A stretch of DNA of 64,000 nucleotides from assembly GCA_964291405.2 (NCBI GenBank), contig OZ219926.1, forward strand, positions 544,001 to 608,000, given 5' to 3'. A program made the translations under genes and the position numbers. The first letter of the stretch is position 1; each line of letters opens with the position of its first letter. This stretch comes from Thermodesulfobacteriota bacterium (GTDB lineage Bacteria > Desulfobacterota > Binatia > Bin18). Positions 2,297 to 9,804 of the stretch are shown here, piece by piece. Under the pieces are notes generated by a model, which was given only the letters and a program-made list of their open reading frames with translations, was not told where the DNA came from and ran no database searches.

Positions 2297-3172
2297 CTAC
2301 AGATACCCCTTTTTCTCATAAAACCCGCGGACCGCTGACTCAAAGCCCTGCGGATTATCTCCCATGACAGAATGGCCAGCCTTGGGTACGAGGGCAAACT
2401 CCGAACCAGGAATCAGTTCTTGTAGGTCCCGTGCGCCATCCAACGAAAAGACATCGCTCTCGCCGCCCTTGACCACCAAGGTCGGACATTGGATCTTTTT
2501 GACCGCCGCAGACAGCTCTGCCTGCATCTGCTTGACATCAACCTTACGGTGACCGTCGCTGAAATACGTATCGTATTTCCAGGTCCACTTGCCCCCTGGA
2601 GTCTCTTTGAGATTATACACCACCGTATATTTGCGTATGACTTCGAGCGGACGCCGTGGATTAAACCGATGAATCACCTCTGCCGCCTGATCCAGGGAGT
2701 CGAACTCACGGTAGTTTTTCATAAAATCACGAATATGCTTGATGCCTTTGGGCTCTACTCGCGGGCCAACATCCACGACGACCAGGGCTTCGACTTTGTC
2801 GGGACATTTTGCCGTGAAGGCGAGCGAGTTTGCCCCCCCCATCGACATGCCAGTCAGAAAGAAACGCTCCAGACCGAGCGCATCGGTGAAGGCATCGGCA
2901 TCCTCGACCATGGAGGCGCGTGAATAGTCCTTATCGGCAGCCCAGTCCGTATCCCCATGGCCACGCTGATCGAAAGCCATGACGTGAAAATGGTCAGACA
3001 TGGCCGCGGCAAACAGATCCCAGGTATGACAGGTCTGCCCTACCCCATGCAGCAGGACTAATGGTGGCTTTTCCGGGCTACCCCAGTCGAGGTAGTGAAA
3101 CCGCAGTCCGTTCGCCTGAACGTATTGATCCGTGAATTGTTTCGCGTCCGAGTTTGATTCCTGGGCCGTCAT
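2297..3172 (-). CDS. Alpha/beta fold hydrolase
   Basis: LLHG oxyanion motif, DQRGHG, GMSMGG nucleophile elbow and catalytic His in AGH. AAAGGAGG RBS upstream of ATG 3172. Confidence 0.9.
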   Translation of the reverse strand: MTAQESNSDAKQFTDQYVQANGLRFHYLDWGSPEKPPLVLLHGVGQTCHTWDLFAAAMSDHFHVMAFDQRGHGDTDWAADKDYSRASMVEDADAFTDALGLERFFLTGMSMGGANSLAFTAKCPDKVEALVVVDVGPRVEPKGIKHIRDFMKNYREFDSLDQAAEVIHRFNPRRPLEVIRKYTVVYNLKETPGGKWTWKYDTYFSDGHRKVDVKQMQAELSAAVKKIQCPTLVVKGGESDVFSLDGARDLQELIPGSEFALVPKAGHSVMGDNPQGFESAVRGFYEKKGYL

Positions 3173-3250
3173 GCATCGTCCTCCTTTGGTGCGCTTCCCC
3201 TGCACTGTTGAGGGGCTACAATAAAGGAAAAGCTGCGGCCGGGAAAGGTA

Positions 3251-3898
3251 TTAGAGCAGTGACCGCACCACCTCGGGCGTGACTTCTCCGAGGTCGGACA
3301 AGACGAGGGCCGCCTGACTAAAGTCGTTGTTTTGGGTGTATGCGTTCGGCACGGCGATGCAGGCAATGCCGGCTCTGGCAGCCGCTGTGACGCCACGATA
3401 CGTGTCTTCCACGACCACGCACCGCTCTCGGGCCAAGCCGAGCTTTTTTGTCGCAGCTAAGAAGGCATCCGGCTCGGGTTTCGCCCGTTCATAATCCTGG
3501 CGCGCGACCGTGTGATCGAAAAACCGATCGAGGTCAAATTTCCTCAGGACGAAGTCTAAATGTTCGCGCTGGCTATTGGTTGCAACAGTCAGTCCAAAGT
3601 GCTGAGACAACTGGGTGAGGGTCTCCTCCACATAGGGCATCAGCGAGACTTCCGTTTTCAACAACTGAAGAAAAATGGGCGAGCGAAGCTGGCGCAAGGT
3701 GGCCGGCGCGACTGGCAATTTGTGCTTTTCTACAATGTATTCGGGTCCGATTCCCCGGGCGATCCAGTACTCTTCATATTCGCGTTGGGTCACGCTGACG
3801 CCATACGGCTTGAGCACTTCACTATACGCGCGGTAGTACAGCCCCTCAGAGTCAATCAGAACCCCGTCCAAATCGAAGATGACGCCAGCGTCTCCCAT
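3251..3898 (-). CDS. HAD family phosphatase (beta-PGM/CbbY-like)
   Basis: FDLDGVLIDSE motif I, KPEPD and VVVED..G motifs. Probable start is ATG 3898. Confidence 0.9.
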   Translation of the reverse strand: MGDAGVIFDLDGVLIDSEGLYYRAYSEVLKPYGVSVTQREYEEYWIARGIGPEYIVEKHKLPVAPATLRQLRSPIFLQLLKTEVSLMPYVEETLTQLSQHFGLTVATNSQREHLDFVLRKFDLDRFFDHTVARQDYERAKPEPDAFLAATKKLGLARERCVVVEDTYRGVTAAARAGIACIAVPNAYTQNNDFSQAALVLSDLGEVTPEVVRSLL

Positions 3899-3962
3899 CC
3901 CTCGCTCACTTTCTCCAACACGCAATTCATTCGTTGCCTGTTTTGTAGTATGCTCTTTGGCC

Positions 3963-4074
3963 ATAAGCATTCAGTATTGATACTGAATGGTAATTGATAT
4001 GCCGAATGGTATAAAGGAAAACAATGCTATGCAGCATAGAGCATTACCGCTCAGAAGAAATTCTGAGCGCTCCC
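3963..4074 (+). repeat. 112-bp AT-rich multi-hairpin dispersed element, monomer copy
   Basis: ATAAGCATTCAG...TTCTGAGCGCTCCC matches 6935-6944 joined to 7206-7307 with 2 substitutions. It contains inverted repeats CATTCAGTAT/ATACTGAATG, TATGCC-GAAT-GGTATA, CTATGC-A-GCATAG and CGCTCAGAA-GAAA-TTCTGAGCG. Confidence 0.95.
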
Positions 4075-4301
4075 TGAAGGCGGCCCAAGACGATCCGTCC
4101 GCAGCCTGGGTCGAGATATTTCGTGAGCTTGGCTTTCCGGCCTACCCTGTTCGGGTAGACGGAGACATGGTCTGTATTATGGCCCCGGCGGCGGATTGTC
4201 CGCGTTTACTCGAAGAGACCATCCGTGAGCCGCTGATTCAACATGGCAAAGCCCTGGGCTACCGGTTTATTACACTCGACATCGGACACTTTGTGGAGTA
4301 A
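4029..4301 (+). CDS. Small protein resembling the C-terminal domain of LarE, with an N-terminus encoded by the repeat element
   Basis: FRELGFPAYPVRVDGDMVCI...PRLLEETIREPLIQHGKALGYRFITLDI resembles the LarE C-terminal pattern (LGF..vRVR..g..arI..lGF.yVTLDL). ATG 4029 follows AAGGAA inside the element. Confidence 0.55.
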   Translation: MQHRALPLRRNSERSLKAAQDDPSAAWVEIFRELGFPAYPVRVDGDMVCIMAPAADCPRLLEETIREPLIQHGKALGYRFITLDIGHFVE

Positions 4302-4313
4302 CGGACAGCGTGC

Positions 4314-4688
4314 TCACTGCGTATCAAGGTCGGCTCGGGCCTGCTCCCAGTCCTGACCGTTGAAGCGCTCGATTTCCAACTCTTCCAGATTCACGCCCTC
4401 CACACAGCGCAGATTCACATCGATCATATCGGGGTGTGAACGCGGGATATAGTACGAAGAGATGCCACACGTAGAACAAAAGTAATGCTTGGCCGTCTTG
4501 GTATGAAATTCGTACAGGCTGAGGGCGTCTGAAGAAGACAGTAAGTGAAAGCGCTCAGGTTCAACTATCCAGTGCAGAAAACCCTTCTTCCGGCAGATTG
4601 AGCAATTACAGTCCAGTACCCGATCAATCTGACCGGAGACCTCAAACCGGACACGCCCGCAATGACAACCTCCTGTGTAGCTTGGCAT
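4314..4688 (-). CDS. GFA (CENP-V/glutathione-dependent formaldehyde-activating) family protein
   Basis: Zn-binding motifs GGCHCG, CNCSIC and FCSTCG, plus RSHP. Confidence 0.9.
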   Translation of the reverse strand: MPSYTGGCHCGRVRFEVSGQIDRVLDCNCSICRKKGFLHWIVEPERFHLLSSSDALSLYEFHTKTAKHYFCSTCGISSYYIPRSHPDMIDVNLRCVEGVNLEELEIERFNGQDWEQARADLDTQ

Positions 4689-4822
4689 ATTCGCCTCTCA
4701 TCAGCCTCGACATTCTCGGCGGAGGTCTCATGACCTCTCCCCTGCATAGCAAGAAACAACCGACCAGAGAAGCCGTCAGGCCCTTGACCCTTTGAGTCCC
4801 CAAGCGATATGAGGGAGCAGAT

Positions 4823-4899
4823 CGGGGTGTGGCGCAGTCTGGTAGCGTACTCGCTTGGGGTGCGAGTGGTCGGCCGTTCAAATCGGCTCACCCCGACCA
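4823..4899 (+). tRNA. tRNA-Pro(GGG)
   Basis: Acceptor stem CGGGGTG/CACCCCG with encoded ACCA end. D-arm GCGC-AGTCTGGTA-GCGT, anticodon arm CTCGC-TTGGGGT-GCGAG, T-loop TTCAAAT. Confidence 0.97.
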
Positions 4900-4917
4900 C
4901 ATTGGCTCCGTGAGGAG

Positions 4918-4950
4918 AGGCGATCACACCGGTGGTCGCCTTTTCTTTTT
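4918..4950 (+). terminator. Intrinsic terminator-like hairpin after tRNA-Pro
   Basis: AGGCGATCAC-ACCG-GTGGTCGCCT followed by TTTCTTTTT. Confidence 0.7.
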
Positions 4951-4975
4951 CTCAGCTTTCTGGTGGAATATCGCT

Positions 4976-5728
4976 ATGATGATTCTGGTGTCGAACGACG
5001 ACGGTATCCAGTCAGAAGGCCTCCGTTGCCTCGAAGAAACCCTCGCCGGTGTTGGTGAGGTCTATACCGTTGCTCCCGACAAAGAGCAAAGCGCGGTCAG
5101 TCATTCGCTGACCTTACACCGGCCCCTGCGGATCGAAGAGGTCGCCCCACACCGCTTTGCCGTCAACGGCACTCCGACCGATTGTATCAATATTGCCGTC
5201 AAGGGGTTTTTACCCGTTCGGCCCGATCTGATCGTTTCAGGCATCAACAAAGGGCCGAATATGGGAGACGATATTACGTATTCGGGTACGGTTGCCGCTG
5301 CACTGGAAGGAGCCCTTTTAGGTATTCCGGCCATTGCCGTTTCGCTGGTAACGTTTACCCCTCCCTACCATTTCCAAGCGGCCGCCGAGTTCTCGGCCAT
5401 GCTGGCAGCCGAAATCCAGACTCCTCGGTTTCCAGCGGACAGCTTGTTGAACGTCAACGTGCCGAACCTGCCGCCTGACCAGATCAGAGGCTATCGTTTT
5501 ACCCGCCAGGGCAAACGGCACTACGGTGAGAATATCGACGTCCGCACGGACCCGAGAGGCAGAAAATACTACTGGATCGGTGGTGATGACCTTGGCTTCG
5601 ATCCCATAGAAGGCTCGGACTGCGTCGCCGTCCACGACGGTTATATTTCAGTCACCCCCTTACGCGCGGACCTCACCCACCACAGCGCCCTCGAAGCCCT
5701 TCAAGACATCCGGCTACCGTGGCGCTAG
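4976..5728 (+). CDS. surE: 5'/3'-nucleotidase SurE
   Basis: ILVSNDDG, VAPDKEQS, GTPTDC, SGINKGPNMG and YSGTV motifs. The true start lies downstream of the tRNA. Confidence 0.97.
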   Translation: MMILVSNDDGIQSEGLRCLEETLAGVGEVYTVAPDKEQSAVSHSLTLHRPLRIEEVAPHRFAVNGTPTDCINIAVKGFLPVRPDLIVSGINKGPNMGDDITYSGTVAAALEGALLGIPAIAVSLVTFTPPYHFQAAAEFSAMLAAEIQTPRFPADSLLNVNVPNLPPDQIRGYRFTRQGKRHYGENIDVRTDPRGRKYYWIGGDDLGFDPIEGSDCVAVHDGYISVTPLRADLTHHSALEALQDIRLPWR

Positions 5729-5750
5729 GGAACGGATCGGCCGACACTCC

Positions 5751-6938
5751 ATGCAGCAGATCTATCTTGACCATAACGCAACGACGCCCATACGGCCGGA
5801 AGTCGTAGAGGCCATGTTGCCCTACTTCACAGGGACATTCGGCAATCCGTCAAGCGTGCATTGGGCCGGTCGTCAAGCCAAACAGGCCCTGGAAACGGCG
5901 CGTGACCATGTGGCGGAGCTGATTGGAGCCAAATCCTCAGAAATACTGTTTACCAGCGGTGGGACAGAGAGTAATAATCTCGCCGTGCATGGGGTGCTCA
6001 AGCCTCGGGGAGTAACCCCCTTTCGTATCGTGACCACGCCCATCGAACACTCGTCTGTTCTGGCAACGATTAAAGCCCTCGGTACCGCCATCGCGTCTGT
6101 TGAGGTTGTGACGCTTGCGGTAGATGACCAGGGGCGCGTCAGTCCGAGCGCTCTTGAAGCCGCCCTGACCCCGGACACCGCCCTCGTGAGCATCGGGCTT
6201 GCCAACCACGAGATTGGTACCCTCCAGCCGATCCGGGAGTTGAGCCCCATGATTCGGGGGCGCGCTATTCCGTTCCATGTGGATGCGGTCCAGGCGGTGG
6301 GGAAAATCCCCGTTGATGTGAACCAACTCGGGGTCGATATCTTATCCTTGTCCGCGCATAAAATTTATGGTCCCAAAGGGATCGGGGCGCTATATGTACG
6401 GCAGGGAACAGCGTTGTCTGCGGTTTTTCGTGGCGGCCCCCAGGAGCGTGAAAAACGGCCCGGCACGGAGAATGTGGCTGCCGCCGTCGGCTTTGGATAC
6501 GCTGCTCAACTCTGCGCCCAAGATATTGAATCAACGCACCCACGTCTGATACATCTCATAACTCGCCTGTGGGACGGCATACAGCAGCATATCCCGGATG
6601 TCGTCCGGTACACGCCAACGCAGGCCTGCTTACCGAATACCCTGAATGTCGGCTTTGCGGGAGCCTCAGGCGAAGGCTTAATGATGGGCCTTGACCTCGC
6701 CGGTGTTGCCGTTTCCACTGGCTCAGCGTGTGCGGCAGGGTCGGTTGAGCCGTCTCATGTTCTCCTGGCTGTGGGCTGCGACGAGGCCGGGGCCAGGAGC
6801 GCGATTCGGTTTAGTGCAGGCAGAGACACGACGGAAGAAGACATCGAAACGGTCATACGGATACTGCCTGGTATTGTGGAACGAGTCCGAAAGGCGGGTC
6901 GTAGCGGGGAAGAGGAACGACCGCTCAATTCTCTATAA
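5751..6938 (+). CDS. iscS: Cysteine desulfurase (IscS/NifS type)
   Basis: IYLDHNATT, GNPSS, SAHKIYGPKG (PLP Lys) and STGSAC (catalytic Cys). Lies upstream of mnmA. Confidence 0.92.
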   Translation: MQQIYLDHNATTPIRPEVVEAMLPYFTGTFGNPSSVHWAGRQAKQALETARDHVAELIGAKSSEILFTSGGTESNNLAVHGVLKPRGVTPFRIVTTPIEHSSVLATIKALGTAIASVEVVTLAVDDQGRVSPSALEAALTPDTALVSIGLANHEIGTLQPIRELSPMIRGRAIPFHVDAVQAVGKIPVDVNQLGVDILSLSAHKIYGPKGIGALYVRQGTALSAVFRGGPQEREKRPGTENVAAAVGFGYAAQLCAQDIESTHPRLIHLITRLWDGIQQHIPDVVRYTPTQACLPNTLNVGFAGASGEGLMMGLDLAGVAVSTGSACAAGSVEPSHVLLAVGCDEAGARSAIRFSAGRDTTEEDIETVIRILPGIVERVRKAGRSGEEERPLNSL

Positions 6939-7307
6939 GCATTCAGTATTGATACTGAATGGTAATTGATATGCCGAATGGCATGCAGGAAGACAATGCT
7001 ATGCCGCATAGAGTATTGATACTGAATGGTAATTGATATGCCTGAATGGTAATTGATATGCCGAATGGTATGAAGGAAGACAATGCTATGCCGCATAGAG
7101 TATTGATACTGAATGGTAATTGATATGCCGAATGGTATGAAGGAAGACAATGCTATGCCGCTGAATGCCGAATGGCATGCAGGAAAACAATGCTATGCCG
7201 CATAGAGTATTGATACTGAATGGTAATTGATATGCCGAATGGTATGAAGGAAGACAATGCTATGCAGCATAGAGCATTACCGCTCAGAAGAAATTCTGAG
7301 CGCTCCC
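6935..7307 (+). repeat. Internally amplified copy of the 112-bp element: tandem array of about 67-bp units
   Basis: Units are 6945-7011 (67 bp), 7012-7098 (67 bp plus a 20-bp internal duplication), 7099-7161 (3'-truncated), 7162-7205 (5'-truncated) and 7206-7272 (67 bp). They are flanked by the same left (6935-6944) and right (7273-7307) ends as the monomer. Confidence 0.95.
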
Positions 7308-8404
7308 CCAACCTTCAAGAGAACCACGGCACCCGCGTCCTTGCAGCGCTGAGTGGCGGAGTGGACAGTGCAGTCGCAACGGCTCTGCTTGTCGAGGCCG
7401 GCTACGAGGTTATTGCCATTTCCATGCTGCTCGCCGGATCGGCCGAGGGCCATGCGGGTAGTTGTTGCTCTATTGATGATTTTCAGGATGCACGCCGTGT
7501 GGCCGAACAACTCGGCATTCCGTATTACGTCCTCAACCTGAAAGAAGCCTTTCAAACGCGCGTCATTGATGTTTTCACTCAGGAATACCAGCACGGTCGG
7601 ACACCGAACCCCTGCCTGCTGTGCAACCGTGATCTCAAGTTTGACCTCTTATGGCAACGCGCACGCGAACTCGACGCCACGTATGTGGCTACCGGTCATT
7701 ATGCCCGGATTGGTTGGGATGAAGTGACCCGGACGGCCCGTCTCTTACGCGGTGCAGATCCGTATAAGGATCAATCGTACTTCCTGTTTACCCTCAACCA
7801 AGCCCAACTCAAACGCACCCTCTTTCCGGTTGGTCATCTGACCAAAGAGCAGGTCCGGGCCAAGGCACATGCGCTGGACTTGCGCATAGCCGAAAAGCCG
7901 GAGAGTCAGGATATTTGTTTTGTCCCGGATGGGAATTATGCTCGCTTTCTCGAACAGCGAATAGCATCTGATCGCGTTGTGTCAGGGGAAATTGTTGATC
8001 AGACGGGGCAGGTTTTAGGTTCACATTCTGGCATCCATCGCTTTACAATCGGCCAGCGACGCGGCCTGGGGCTCGGCGGATTGACTCAGCCTCATTATGT
8101 CACCCACATTGACCCTGCATCCGGCCGCGTGACCGTTGGTACACAGGAGCAACTCAAGAGGTACGGCCTTCGGGCAAAAGACGTCAATTGGGTATCAGGC
8201 AATCAACCGGAGAAAATCCAGGTTGCGGCCAAAATTCGCTATCGTCAGGACCCTATTGCCGCAACGGTCAGCGCCACCACCGCCACCACCGCAGAGGTGT
8301 GGTTTCAGGAGGCGTCTCCAGCTATCACGCCGGGACAGGCAGTCGTATTTTATGACGGCGATCTCGTGCTGGGCGGTGGCTGGATTGAGAGTCCTCTACC
8401 GTAA
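7262..8404 (+). CDS. mnmA: tRNA 2-thiouridine(34) synthase MnmA
   Basis: SGGVDS PP-loop, GSCCS, TPNPC..CN, ATGHYA, KDQSYFL, SQDICF and PGQAVVFY motifs. All usable start codons (7220/7232/7244/7262) lie in the repeat. Confidence 0.97.
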   Translation: MQHRALPLRRNSERSPNLQENHGTRVLAALSGGVDSAVATALLVEAGYEVIAISMLLAGSAEGHAGSCCSIDDFQDARRVAEQLGIPYYVLNLKEAFQTRVIDVFTQEYQHGRTPNPCLLCNRDLKFDLLWQRARELDATYVATGHYARIGWDEVTRTARLLRGADPYKDQSYFLFTLNQAQLKRTLFPVGHLTKEQVRAKAHALDLRIAEKPESQDICFVPDGNYARFLEQRIASDRVVSGEIVDQTGQVLGSHSGIHRFTIGQRRGLGLGGLTQPHYVTHIDPASGRVTVGTQEQLKRYGLRAKDVNWVSGNQPEKIQVAAKIRYRQDPIAATVSATTATTAEVWFQEASPAITPGQAVVFYDGDLVLGGGWIESPLP

Positions 8405-8418
8405 AGGATGCTGTATTC

Positions 8419-9804
8419 ATGTCGCTTGTCACCTCACTTGACATGACCTCTTCACCGCACACCTCGCGTCGTGTTGCCATCACCACCCTAGGTTGCAAAG
8501 TGAATCAGTATGACACGGCTACGCTGCAAGAGCGTCTCTCTGCAGCAGGCCACCAGTGTATCCCGTTTAGCGATGCGGCCGAAGTCTACATCATCAATAG
8601 CTGCACAGTCACCAATCAGGCAGACGCTGAGAGTCGCCAGTTGGTACGCCGGGCGAAGCGGCGCAACCCGGATGCCCTGGTTATTATGACCGGTTGTTAT
8701 GCTCAGGTGAGTCCCGAGGCCGTGGCTCACATACCCGAAGTGGACTATGTTGTTGGTCTCAATCGGCCCGATGATCTGGTGCGCCTGGTTGCTCAGGGAG
8801 CCCCAGCCACTCAGCCACCAGACCAGAATATTTTTGTCAGCAAGCTGCGGACCGCCAAGCATGAAGCCACACCAGGTATCAATACATTTGGGGCAGCGAC
8901 CTTTCAGGGCCAGACTCGGGCGTTTCTCAAAATTCAGGAAGGCTGCGACCTCTTCTGTACGTTTTGTATTGTGCCCATGTCACGCGGGAAAAGTCGCAGT
9001 ATTGCACCGCGTGTCATCCTGGAGCAGCTCGACCGCCTGGCCGACCAAGGCTTTCAGGAAGTAGTTCTGACCGGTATTCATCTGGGCGGCTATGGCGCAG
9101 ACCTCAATCCCCATGTCAGTCTAATCTGGTTGCTCGAAGCCCTGGAGGAACGGCGACCGGTTCCGCGAGTGCGTCTGAGTTCGCTCGACCCGCATGAAAT
9201 CAGCCCAGCCCTCATACAGCTCCTCACTCACTCCGAGATCCTGTGCCCCCATTTGCATATCCCTCTCCAATGGGGGGAGGATTCCATCTTGGCTCGGATG
9301 CGAAGGCGATACGACACTGCTCTCGCCAGAGACATTCTGACCGAACTGCGGGAGCGTTTACCAGACGCGGCCTTGGGGACGGACCTCATTGTCGGCTTTC
9401 CCGGTGAGGGCGAGGCGGAATTTGCCCAGGGAATAAGATTTTTGGAGGAAAGCCCCTTCACGTATTTTCACGTCTTTCCCTATTCAGTCCGGAGCGGGAC
9501 AACCGCGGCAAAGTTCACAGACCGAGTCCCCCCATCCGTTATCCAGGAGAGAGCAAGACAGGTTCGTGCACTCGGCGAACGCAAGAAGGCGGCCTTCATC
9601 CGTCAGTTTGAGTCTGAGACTTTACCGGTTCTTTTTGAGCATCAGCGGGACAGAGCCAGCGGACGACTCAAGGGCTATAGCCGCAACTATATCAGAGTCT
9701 ATGCGGACGGCAGTGATGACTACATGAACCGGGAAGTTCCGGTGAGAATGGCGCGGGCCGATGAGGGGTTACTGTCCGGTACTATTCTTCAGGACGCCGC
9801 ATGA
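8419..9804 (+). CDS. mtaB: tRNA t6A37 methylthiotransferase MtaB
   Basis: TLGCKVNQYD, NSCTVT, TGCYAQ and radical SAM KIQEGCDLFCTFC motifs. Confidence 0.93.
   Translation: MSLVTSLDMTSSPHTSRRVAITTLGCKVNQYDTATLQERLSAAGHQCIPFSDAAEVYIINSCTVTNQADAESRQLVRRAKRRNPDALVIMTGCYAQVSPEAVAHIPEVDYVVGLNRPDDLVRLVAQGAPATQPPDQNIFVSKLRTAKHEATPGINTFGAATFQGQTRAFLKIQEGCDLFCTFCIVPMSRGKSRSIAPRVILEQLDRLADQGFQEVVLTGIHLGGYGADLNPHVSLIWLLEALEERRPVPRVRLSSLDPHEISPALIQLLTHSEILCPHLHIPLQWGEDSILARMRRRYDTALARDILTELRERLPDAALGTDLIVGFPGEGEAEFAQGIRFLEESPFTYFHVFPYSVRSGTTAAKFTDRVPPSVIQERARQVRALGERKKAAFIRQFESETLPVLFEHQRDRASGRLKGYSRNYIRVYADGSDDYMNREVPVRMARADEGLLSGTILQDAA

Follow-up and report, generated by a model that had tools for sequence, protein, structure and literature searches.

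A short AT-rich element occurs at two sites, 3 kb apart, in a stretch of 64,000 nucleotides from a Thermodesulfobacteriota bacterium (positions 544,001 to 608,000 of contig OZ219926.1, assembly GCA_964291405.2; this whole stretch is called the window, and positions are counted from its first letter). With somewhat more confidence than doubt, we take it for a low-copy, non-autonomous palindromic doublet that overwrites host DNA and is similar in behaviour to REPINs, the doublets of repetitive extragenic palindromic (REP) sequences. The two copies and the units of the first are as follows.

3965..4072, + strand: monomer form of the element at site 1, a 108-bp doublet (filled versus empty alleles, unit alignment)
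3965..4012, + strand: left unit, with an AAG foot, the 9-bp hairpin H1 (3968-3989), a GGTAAT linker and the 5-bp hairpin H2 (3999-4012)
4024..4072, - strand: right unit, inverted, with H1' (4048-4069) and H2' (4024-4037)
6937..7305, + strand: array form of the element at site 2 (filled versus empty alleles, read support)

We observed the element at four unrelated sites: sites 1 and 2 of the window, and two sites in relatives that are unlinked to them, site b (a doublet in a hypothetical gene) and site c (a single unit in the leader of aroC). Filled alleles were found in six of 25 genomes aligned at site 1, three of 26 at site 2, three of 15 at site b and three of 20 at site c (genomes G003 and G008 had no match to the genes of the window region), and the element is so rare that every site has at least a dozen empty alleles for comparison. 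Relative to these, the element starts at the same element base at all four sites (window positions 3965 and 6937), and at three sites both ends of the doublet are placed about 3 nt beyond the H1 hairpins. The length of host DNA lost varies from site to site: ~31 nt at site 1, ~12 nt at site 2, 32-39 nt at site c and ~66 nt at site b. None of the four sites has a target-site duplication when filled and empty alleles are compared, in agreement with a preliminary description of this DNA made from its letters alone. The aligned alleles show replacement of a short host stretch, and not simple insertion.

The replacement begins at the G of the ATG of a host open reading frame (ORF) at site 1, and at the G of the mnmA ATG at site 2. 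The first two letters (AT) of the 112-bp repeat noted earlier (3963-4074) are host ATG bases and lie outside the element, as seen from the filled and empty alleles. That description had placed both copies at gene starts, and the location was right, but the element has replaced the starts and does not merely adjoin them; the sequence at 6920-6932, which it suggested to be a degraded right end, belongs to the ancestral host DNA and is present in the empty alleles. All four sites share the left context YYAK^GA (a motif defined after the fact), which coincides with the host start codon at sites 1 and 2. Three of the four sites remove annotated-type coding DNA. At site b the doublet lies inside the hypothetical gene, on the opposite strand, and truncates it (genomes G010, G015 and G025). 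This gene appears frameshifted in this genome (locus L130, G000:C3 ~2967430-2967900) and in G019, so it may be dispensable.

The element is clearly poorer in G+C than the flanking genes (0.39-0.41 versus 0.56-0.59; 44 of 112 bases over 3963-4074), and both this composition and the recurrence at a second site, found by BLAST, bear out the first account. It consists of two inverted units of ~48 nt with an 11-nt spacer. The units are identical in 32 of 48 alignment columns (~67%), so that imperfect inverted halves are present where terminal inverted repeats had been denied. Within a unit, the order is AG foot, 9-bp hairpin, conserved GGTAAT linker and 5-bp hairpin. Folding z-scores are -4.1 to -4.5 on both strands, and none of 200 shuffles was as stable. 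Over 17 distinct units, 97.9% of stem cells are paired (slid controls at most 46.5%) and four stem pairs are changed on both sides, the cells with stem changes representing few independent events; none of 500 shuffles scored as high on cells paired and covariation together. AG is found directly 5' of H1 in all 17 aligned units, all of which were chosen by a pattern that includes the AG foot, and the four foot bases vary between units (TAAG, GAAG, GGAG, AAAG, CAAG and AGAG). The element has no match in Rfam 15, a check that had been proposed for it; over 3000-8500 only a tRNA gene (4823-4896, upstream of surE) passes, and two matches with E>1 are noise. The four independent sites, the empty alleles, the compensatory stem changes and the Rfam result together speak for the preliminary reading, in which the element is small, palindromic, mobile, non-autonomous and outside the known families.

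Only the two sites of the window were found in the 4.95-Mb genome by BLAST and a covariance model. The unit pattern matches seven of 55 genomes of the family, all of them within the genus (seven of 28), with 1-4 sites per carrier genome; the carriers are among relatives labelled Candidatus Binatia, and several of the runs that hold the stretch are sponge metagenomes. RNA runs contain only small parts of it, and Hi-C run X21 yielded no reads on it. Among 151 sampled genomes of the class, strong scores were obtained only for the three carriers of the sample, and weak matches in G063 and G094 were read and dismissed as chance or contaminant. One of the loci read (L181, G063:C1:315495-318528) is AT-rich, nearly ORF-free DNA in a bacterial assembly and looks like host or contaminant sequence. 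A search of one genome per species returned 13 Binatia stretches and one Treponema coding match. Loose matches numbered 0 and 7 in viral contigs and 0 and 3 in metagenomes, and all of them lacked both the second hairpin and a partner unit; plasmids gave no match, and phages four short ones (E 0.3-4). In five carrier genomes the unit model revealed no further copies, its weak matches there being coding DNA. Outside the genus, the searches gave chance matches only.

Two of the sites concern the start of a gene, and the following features of the window are involved.

4014..4031, + strand: Shine-Dalgarno (SD)-like AAGGA (4014-4018) and ATG (4029-4031) of the element at site 1 (translation)
4029..4301, + strand: host gene at site 1, 90 residues here (translation, profile search)
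6936..6938, + strand: TAA stop, created at the left junction, of the cysteine desulfurase gene upstream (5751-6938)
7247..7264, + strand: AAGGA (7247-7251) and ATG (7262-7264) of the last array unit, in frame with mnmA
7262..8404, + strand: mnmA (tRNA 2-thiouridine synthase), intact, 380 residues from the element ATG

In the empty alleles, the site-1 ORF has 86-87 residues (86 in most) and mnmA 370-374, and the start ATG is without an evident SD sequence. In the filled copies of sites 1 and 2 the host ATG is gone in nine out of nine, and translation reveals an AAGGA-type motif and an in-frame ATG in the same nine; the motif lies 10 nt before the ATG of the right unit, which opens the 90-residue or the 380-residue frame. 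At site 1, the element ATG gives the host ORF a new N-terminus of 15 residues (the protein has a weak similarity to the C-terminal part of LarE, with E 0.002, far below the cut-off). At site 2, mnmA is matched by NCBIfam NF001138 with 439.6 bits (cut-off 284), and further in-frame ATGs are found at 7220 and 7232. Between the junction and the conserved N-terminal motif of mnmA the sequence contains no other in-frame ATG, GTG or TTG, which argues strongly that mnmA is initiated within the element. The element appears to supply the start signals of both genes, and it offers a clear example of a mobile palindrome apparently turned into the translation-start region of mnmA. The three site-b copies have ATT in place of ATG and no AAGGA, and their H2' loop is nearer to the H2 loop of the left unit. 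Because of this nearness, the ATG of the element would be a later gain, and, as mnmA has no other start before its N-terminal motif, the SD-like motif and ATG would have been kept by selection.

The stop codon of the desulfurase gene lies at the element junction because the host stop is lost in this genome. In the part of the literature seen (PMC3733652), intragenic GTAG/CGTC REPs and Rickettsia palindromic elements are likewise palindromes in frame within ORFs, often N-terminal, and REP ends can likewise supply stop codons; those are in-frame insertions, however, whereas here the native start is deleted and an SD-like motif and ATG are supplied.

The copy at site 2 differs from the monomer by 261 bp: three extra 67-bp periods, one 20-bp and one 40-bp duplication. 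In monomer positions its order is 1-79, 13-41, 22-79, 13-72, 33-79 and 13-112. It had been described as about five 67-bp units; the amplification is there, but the number and kind of units differ. As had been noted, joining 6935-6944 to 7206-7307 rebuilds the monomer with two substitutions. Every joint of the array falls at short internal near-repeats of the monomer, as anticipated in the suggestion that internal repeats could seed slippage, and the joints show that the array arose through slippage between them. Among the three genomes with site 2 filled, only this one has the array form. The array is a secondary local event, because the other two (G023 and G010) hold the monomer there. Runs X1 and X2, from two studies, contain a 96-bp contig that covers 7141-7235, has one extra T behind 7164 and runs across junctions found only in the array (run X1 may be the source sample of the assembly). 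The read check proposed earlier thus confirms junctions, and an assembly artefact is unlikely; as no listed contig piece covers the whole array, the confirmation extends to junctions and not to the exact unit count. The upstream units of the array encode short frames, one of which ends 1 nt before the in-frame ATG at 7232, making translational coupling possible, and the local array could tune the expression of mnmA. A clustered regularly interspaced short palindromic repeat (CRISPR) array was considered and rejected, as there are no unique spacers and the array is built wholly of monomer segments.

Two smaller differences were seen at site 1. In G002 (L025:6174-6196) the left end of the element is tandemly duplicated (11 bp), a second independent slippage event. 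Window position 4010 is T here and C in the other site-1 copies and in runs X1, X2 and X3; this T, seen also in some array units, is either a conversion from the array or a polishing error.

Copies of the element cluster by site and not by genome, and in trees the filled alleles form no clades on either flank. Doublets at the same site differ at 0-4 of 108-110 bases (0-1 of 109 at site b), while their flanks differ by 6-13% (these pairs are not independent), and the flanks of same-site copies switch haplotype within ~10-25 bp. For example, at site 1 of this genome the left flank as far as 3940 and the right flank from 4082 on go with a clade of seven empty genomes, and filled-type sequence is limited to ~3951-4075. 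In another example, G023 and G010 have an identical site-2 copy with two derived changes, and each of them is nearer to an empty genome on both flanks. The left flank of site c in G015 is 1.0% from that of G018, which has no unit; the site-b flanks of G025 follow the empty G004 to within ~15 bp; and run X3 is ~99% identical on both flanks of site 2, with the site empty. From these patterns we infer that short patches carried filled alleles from one species to another at the same site. Site 2 was probably copied from a site-1-type copy, since the two share variants.

The same distribution could have been reached passively by an element that is otherwise as described here. Long tracts would have been inherited or imported, and recombination with empty alleles would later have overwritten the flanks up to the heterology. 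We regard this as a possibility to be taken seriously, short of being probable. The genus is visibly mosaic, with different trees for neighbouring genes; an unrelated repeat at the aroC leader is also found on several haplotypes; and strand exchange stalls at heterologies. However, copies at the same site have diverged far less than the flanks around them, even at site b, where the element has no start function, so long vertical retention is unlikely, and two edge-ending events would be required per lineage. The comparison suggests a recent gain by short patches, which we favour, with passive erosion of the flanks in a mosaic genus as the less probable alternative. If the short-patch spread is active and not passive, it points to a natural mechanism of DNA rewriting by short homology.

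A more specific version of active spread is speculative, and we consider it distinctly unlikely. The element would be a non-coding homing element that copies itself into matching empty sites of other strains or species. With only ~10-25 bp of flanking homology, and in place of a short piece of host DNA, it would do so through a single-strand 'nick and rewrite' that is independent of RecA and carried out by an unrecognised enzyme. If this were true, the same route may serve several repeat families of the genus, and the element could take over the translation starts of housekeeping genes.

For the doublet itself, new sites would be made by a trans-acting enzyme and host repair, through a single-strand, hairpin-guided nick-and-copy, with an HUH/RAYT-type enzyme as the leading guess. 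According to the part of PMC8266576 available to us, TnpAREP cuts REPs in single-stranded form at C|T or C|A, the position varying, and the 3'-OH can prime copying or strand transfer. A nick-and-copy followed by host repair would explain fixed element ends together with a variable loss of host DNA.

The comparison with REPINs is close in several respects. REP doublets are, in the portions seen of PMC3116915 and PMC8266576, inverted pairs of short palindromes with a spacer, ~110 bp in all, and singlets and tandem clusters also occur (PMC3116915). The AG at the hairpin foot is shared as well; in systematic evolution of ligands by exponential enrichment (SELEX) with TnpAREP, the strongest selection within the REP tag is reported for AG (same portion of PMC8266576). 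It has also been suggested, from orthologous positions in Pseudomonas, that REPINs 'may be overwritten' (10.1101/2024.10.14.618302, seen in part). On the other hand, the element has two hairpins per unit; it replaces coding DNA, whereas REPs are mainly extragenic; and it seems to be passed from species to species, while vertical inheritance is described for REPINs. The preliminary description had advised looking for RAYT/TnpA(Y1), reverse transcriptase or other mobility genes next to the copies, and none that is flanked by the element was found, RAYT included.

A number of observations weigh against the reading of an overwriting, spreading doublet. Four sites are few, and two or three of them are filtered by selection at start codons. 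The count of stem pairs with two-sided change is reached by 340 of 500 shuffles, and folding predicts the ATG or the SD-like motif to be partly paired. The G002 copy differs from the others at 6-8 bases, and the divergence of the single units of site c (2-4 of 48) matches that of the DNA on either side. The nearest neighbour is unfilled on both flanks for 11 of 15 filled alleles (three marginally), a count that, since unfilled alleles outnumber filled ones, indicates only that the filled alleles are not one haplotype; the unrelated repeat at site c gives two of four in the same count. The element is without a GT(A/G)G or CGTC tag, only the AG being common, and has 1-4 sites per genome versus tens to hundreds for REPINs. 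Its junctions have no clean correspondence to C|T or C|A. Among the carriers examined, no cognate enzyme gene is beside any copy: Y1_Tnp is found in two of seven carriers (five have no match) and RVT_1 in four of seven (missing from three), neither tracking the carriers, and the RAYT and GIY-YIG genes of this genome, like the DUF559 and four-helix-bundle genes examined in carriers, are flanked by other repeats. Because tag, cognate RAYT and copy number all differ from those of REPs, we describe the element as behaving in a REPIN-like way and do not file it as a REP/REPIN member.

The only Y1_Tnp match of this genome (L156:1020-1800; G000:C3 ~981600-982400) is apparently interrupted by a composite repeat of ~180 bp and is flanked by a different REP family. 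Some four-helix-bundle genes, 11-14 kb from site b, lie within their own heptamer repeats. Repeats of the genus around RAYT, DUF559, GIY-YIG and four-helix-bundle genes are, like the element, palindromic or tandem, and at least one of them overwrites host DNA; they differ in being of unrelated sequence, G+C-rich, often in tens of copies and placed around a small cognate gene, whereas the element is AT-rich, rare and without a cognate gene.

We found no paper on this family or on the overwriting of start codons (subscription journals were largely outside the coverage). The spread of REP-type repeats is a long-standing open question. The replacement, the fixed element ends and the near-identical copies on unrelated haplotypes make a small testable case for 'overwriting'. 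Several other candidates (dif/pdif, oriT, rolling-circle origins, sigma-54 promoters and RIME/Bru-RS) were also considered and set aside, the spacing or conservation appearing wrong.

The element could instead be an ordinary miniature inverted-repeat transposable element (MITE), an insertion sequence with an internal deletion and with imperfect terminal inverted repeats of ~48 bp, that was inserted normally and whose target duplication and adjacent host DNA were later erased by transposase-driven deletions. It has two inverted halves, both ends of the doublet keep a distance of ~3 nt from the H1 hairpins at three sites, and 108 bp is within the MITE range of 70-300 bp given in the part seen of PMC3733652, where RUP, NEMIS/Correia and ERIC resemble it in size, inverted ends, lack of coding capacity and position next to genes. 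In the consulted portion of PMC11708052, adjacent deletions down to 14 bp remove target duplications. But such a deletion would be needed at all four sites, always of 12-66 nt, and host DNA is lost, without a target duplication, everywhere. The ~67% identical halves are themselves palindromic, with compensatory changes, and no parent insertion sequence or longer element with the same ends was found in the five carriers, in the sampled genomes of the class or in the one-genome-per-species, viral, metagenome, plasmid and phage sets. We hold this explanation to be unlikely.

A cis-regulatory cassette (an operator pair or a structured 5' RNA) recruited for mnmA, the small ORF and aroC is very unlikely. 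Three of the four sites are at 5' ends, two of them (by eye) just behind a -10-like hexamer, and a long predicted hairpin contains or adjoins the SD-like motif and ATG. Site b, in contrast, is inside a coding gene that it truncates; most orthologues are without the element; Rfam has no match; and a promoter scan found no site at 3800-4200. In the stems, the changes are Watson-Crick swaps, and neither strand folds better than the other, as expected of DNA palindromes. The structured cis-RNA family that had been offered as an alternative fits poorly with a site that truncates a coding gene on the opposite strand and with the many orthologues lacking the element. A local duplication or an assembly artefact, finally, would suit two sites 3 kb apart in one genome, one probably copied from a site-1-type copy, but is extremely improbable given the array junctions in contigs of two public runs and the two further unlinked sites in relatives, so that the anticipated low copy number held and the local duplication it was to indicate did not.

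The overwriting seen for the doublet is, as alignments of the aroC leader indicate, not unique to this element in the genus. This leader (G000:C3 ~2480810-2480870, minus strand; loci L093-L121) is a hotspot in which ~35-40 nt between a -10-like hexamer and the SD sequence are replaced. The replacement is this element in three genomes and a different palindrome in four (G005, G007, G011 and G021); G013 and G022 have other sequence there. In G018 the leader is shortened, and in G027 the stretch has given way to a 455-bp insert with an internally repeated small ORF. Near the aroC leader, another repeat replaces 38 nt with 33 nt. By eye, the unfilled leader (L095, L098-L103), which is ancestral, has a short frame of ~13-16 codons, which begins close to the presumed start of transcription and in most cases terminates within the SD region; between genomes the leader differs in length by multiples of three. 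This stretch may be a leaderless upstream ORF or just a hairpin.

Other repeats were also observed. In more distant members (G014, G024 and G020; loci L046, L047 and L050), the gap between the desulfurase gene and mnmA contains an unrelated tandem repeat of ~35-40 bp. A family of long-hairpin repeats of ~53 bp is found in this genome (e.g. at 126803, 137176 and 612223 of G000:C3; its top 18-mer has 32 copies); no partner gene was identified for it, and in G015 one copy is found upstream of a DUF559 gene. Another family, with inverted-repeat ends (L026:5598-5766 and G000:C3 ~2967207), appears to insert with a short duplication and no overwriting, and has other repeats inside it.

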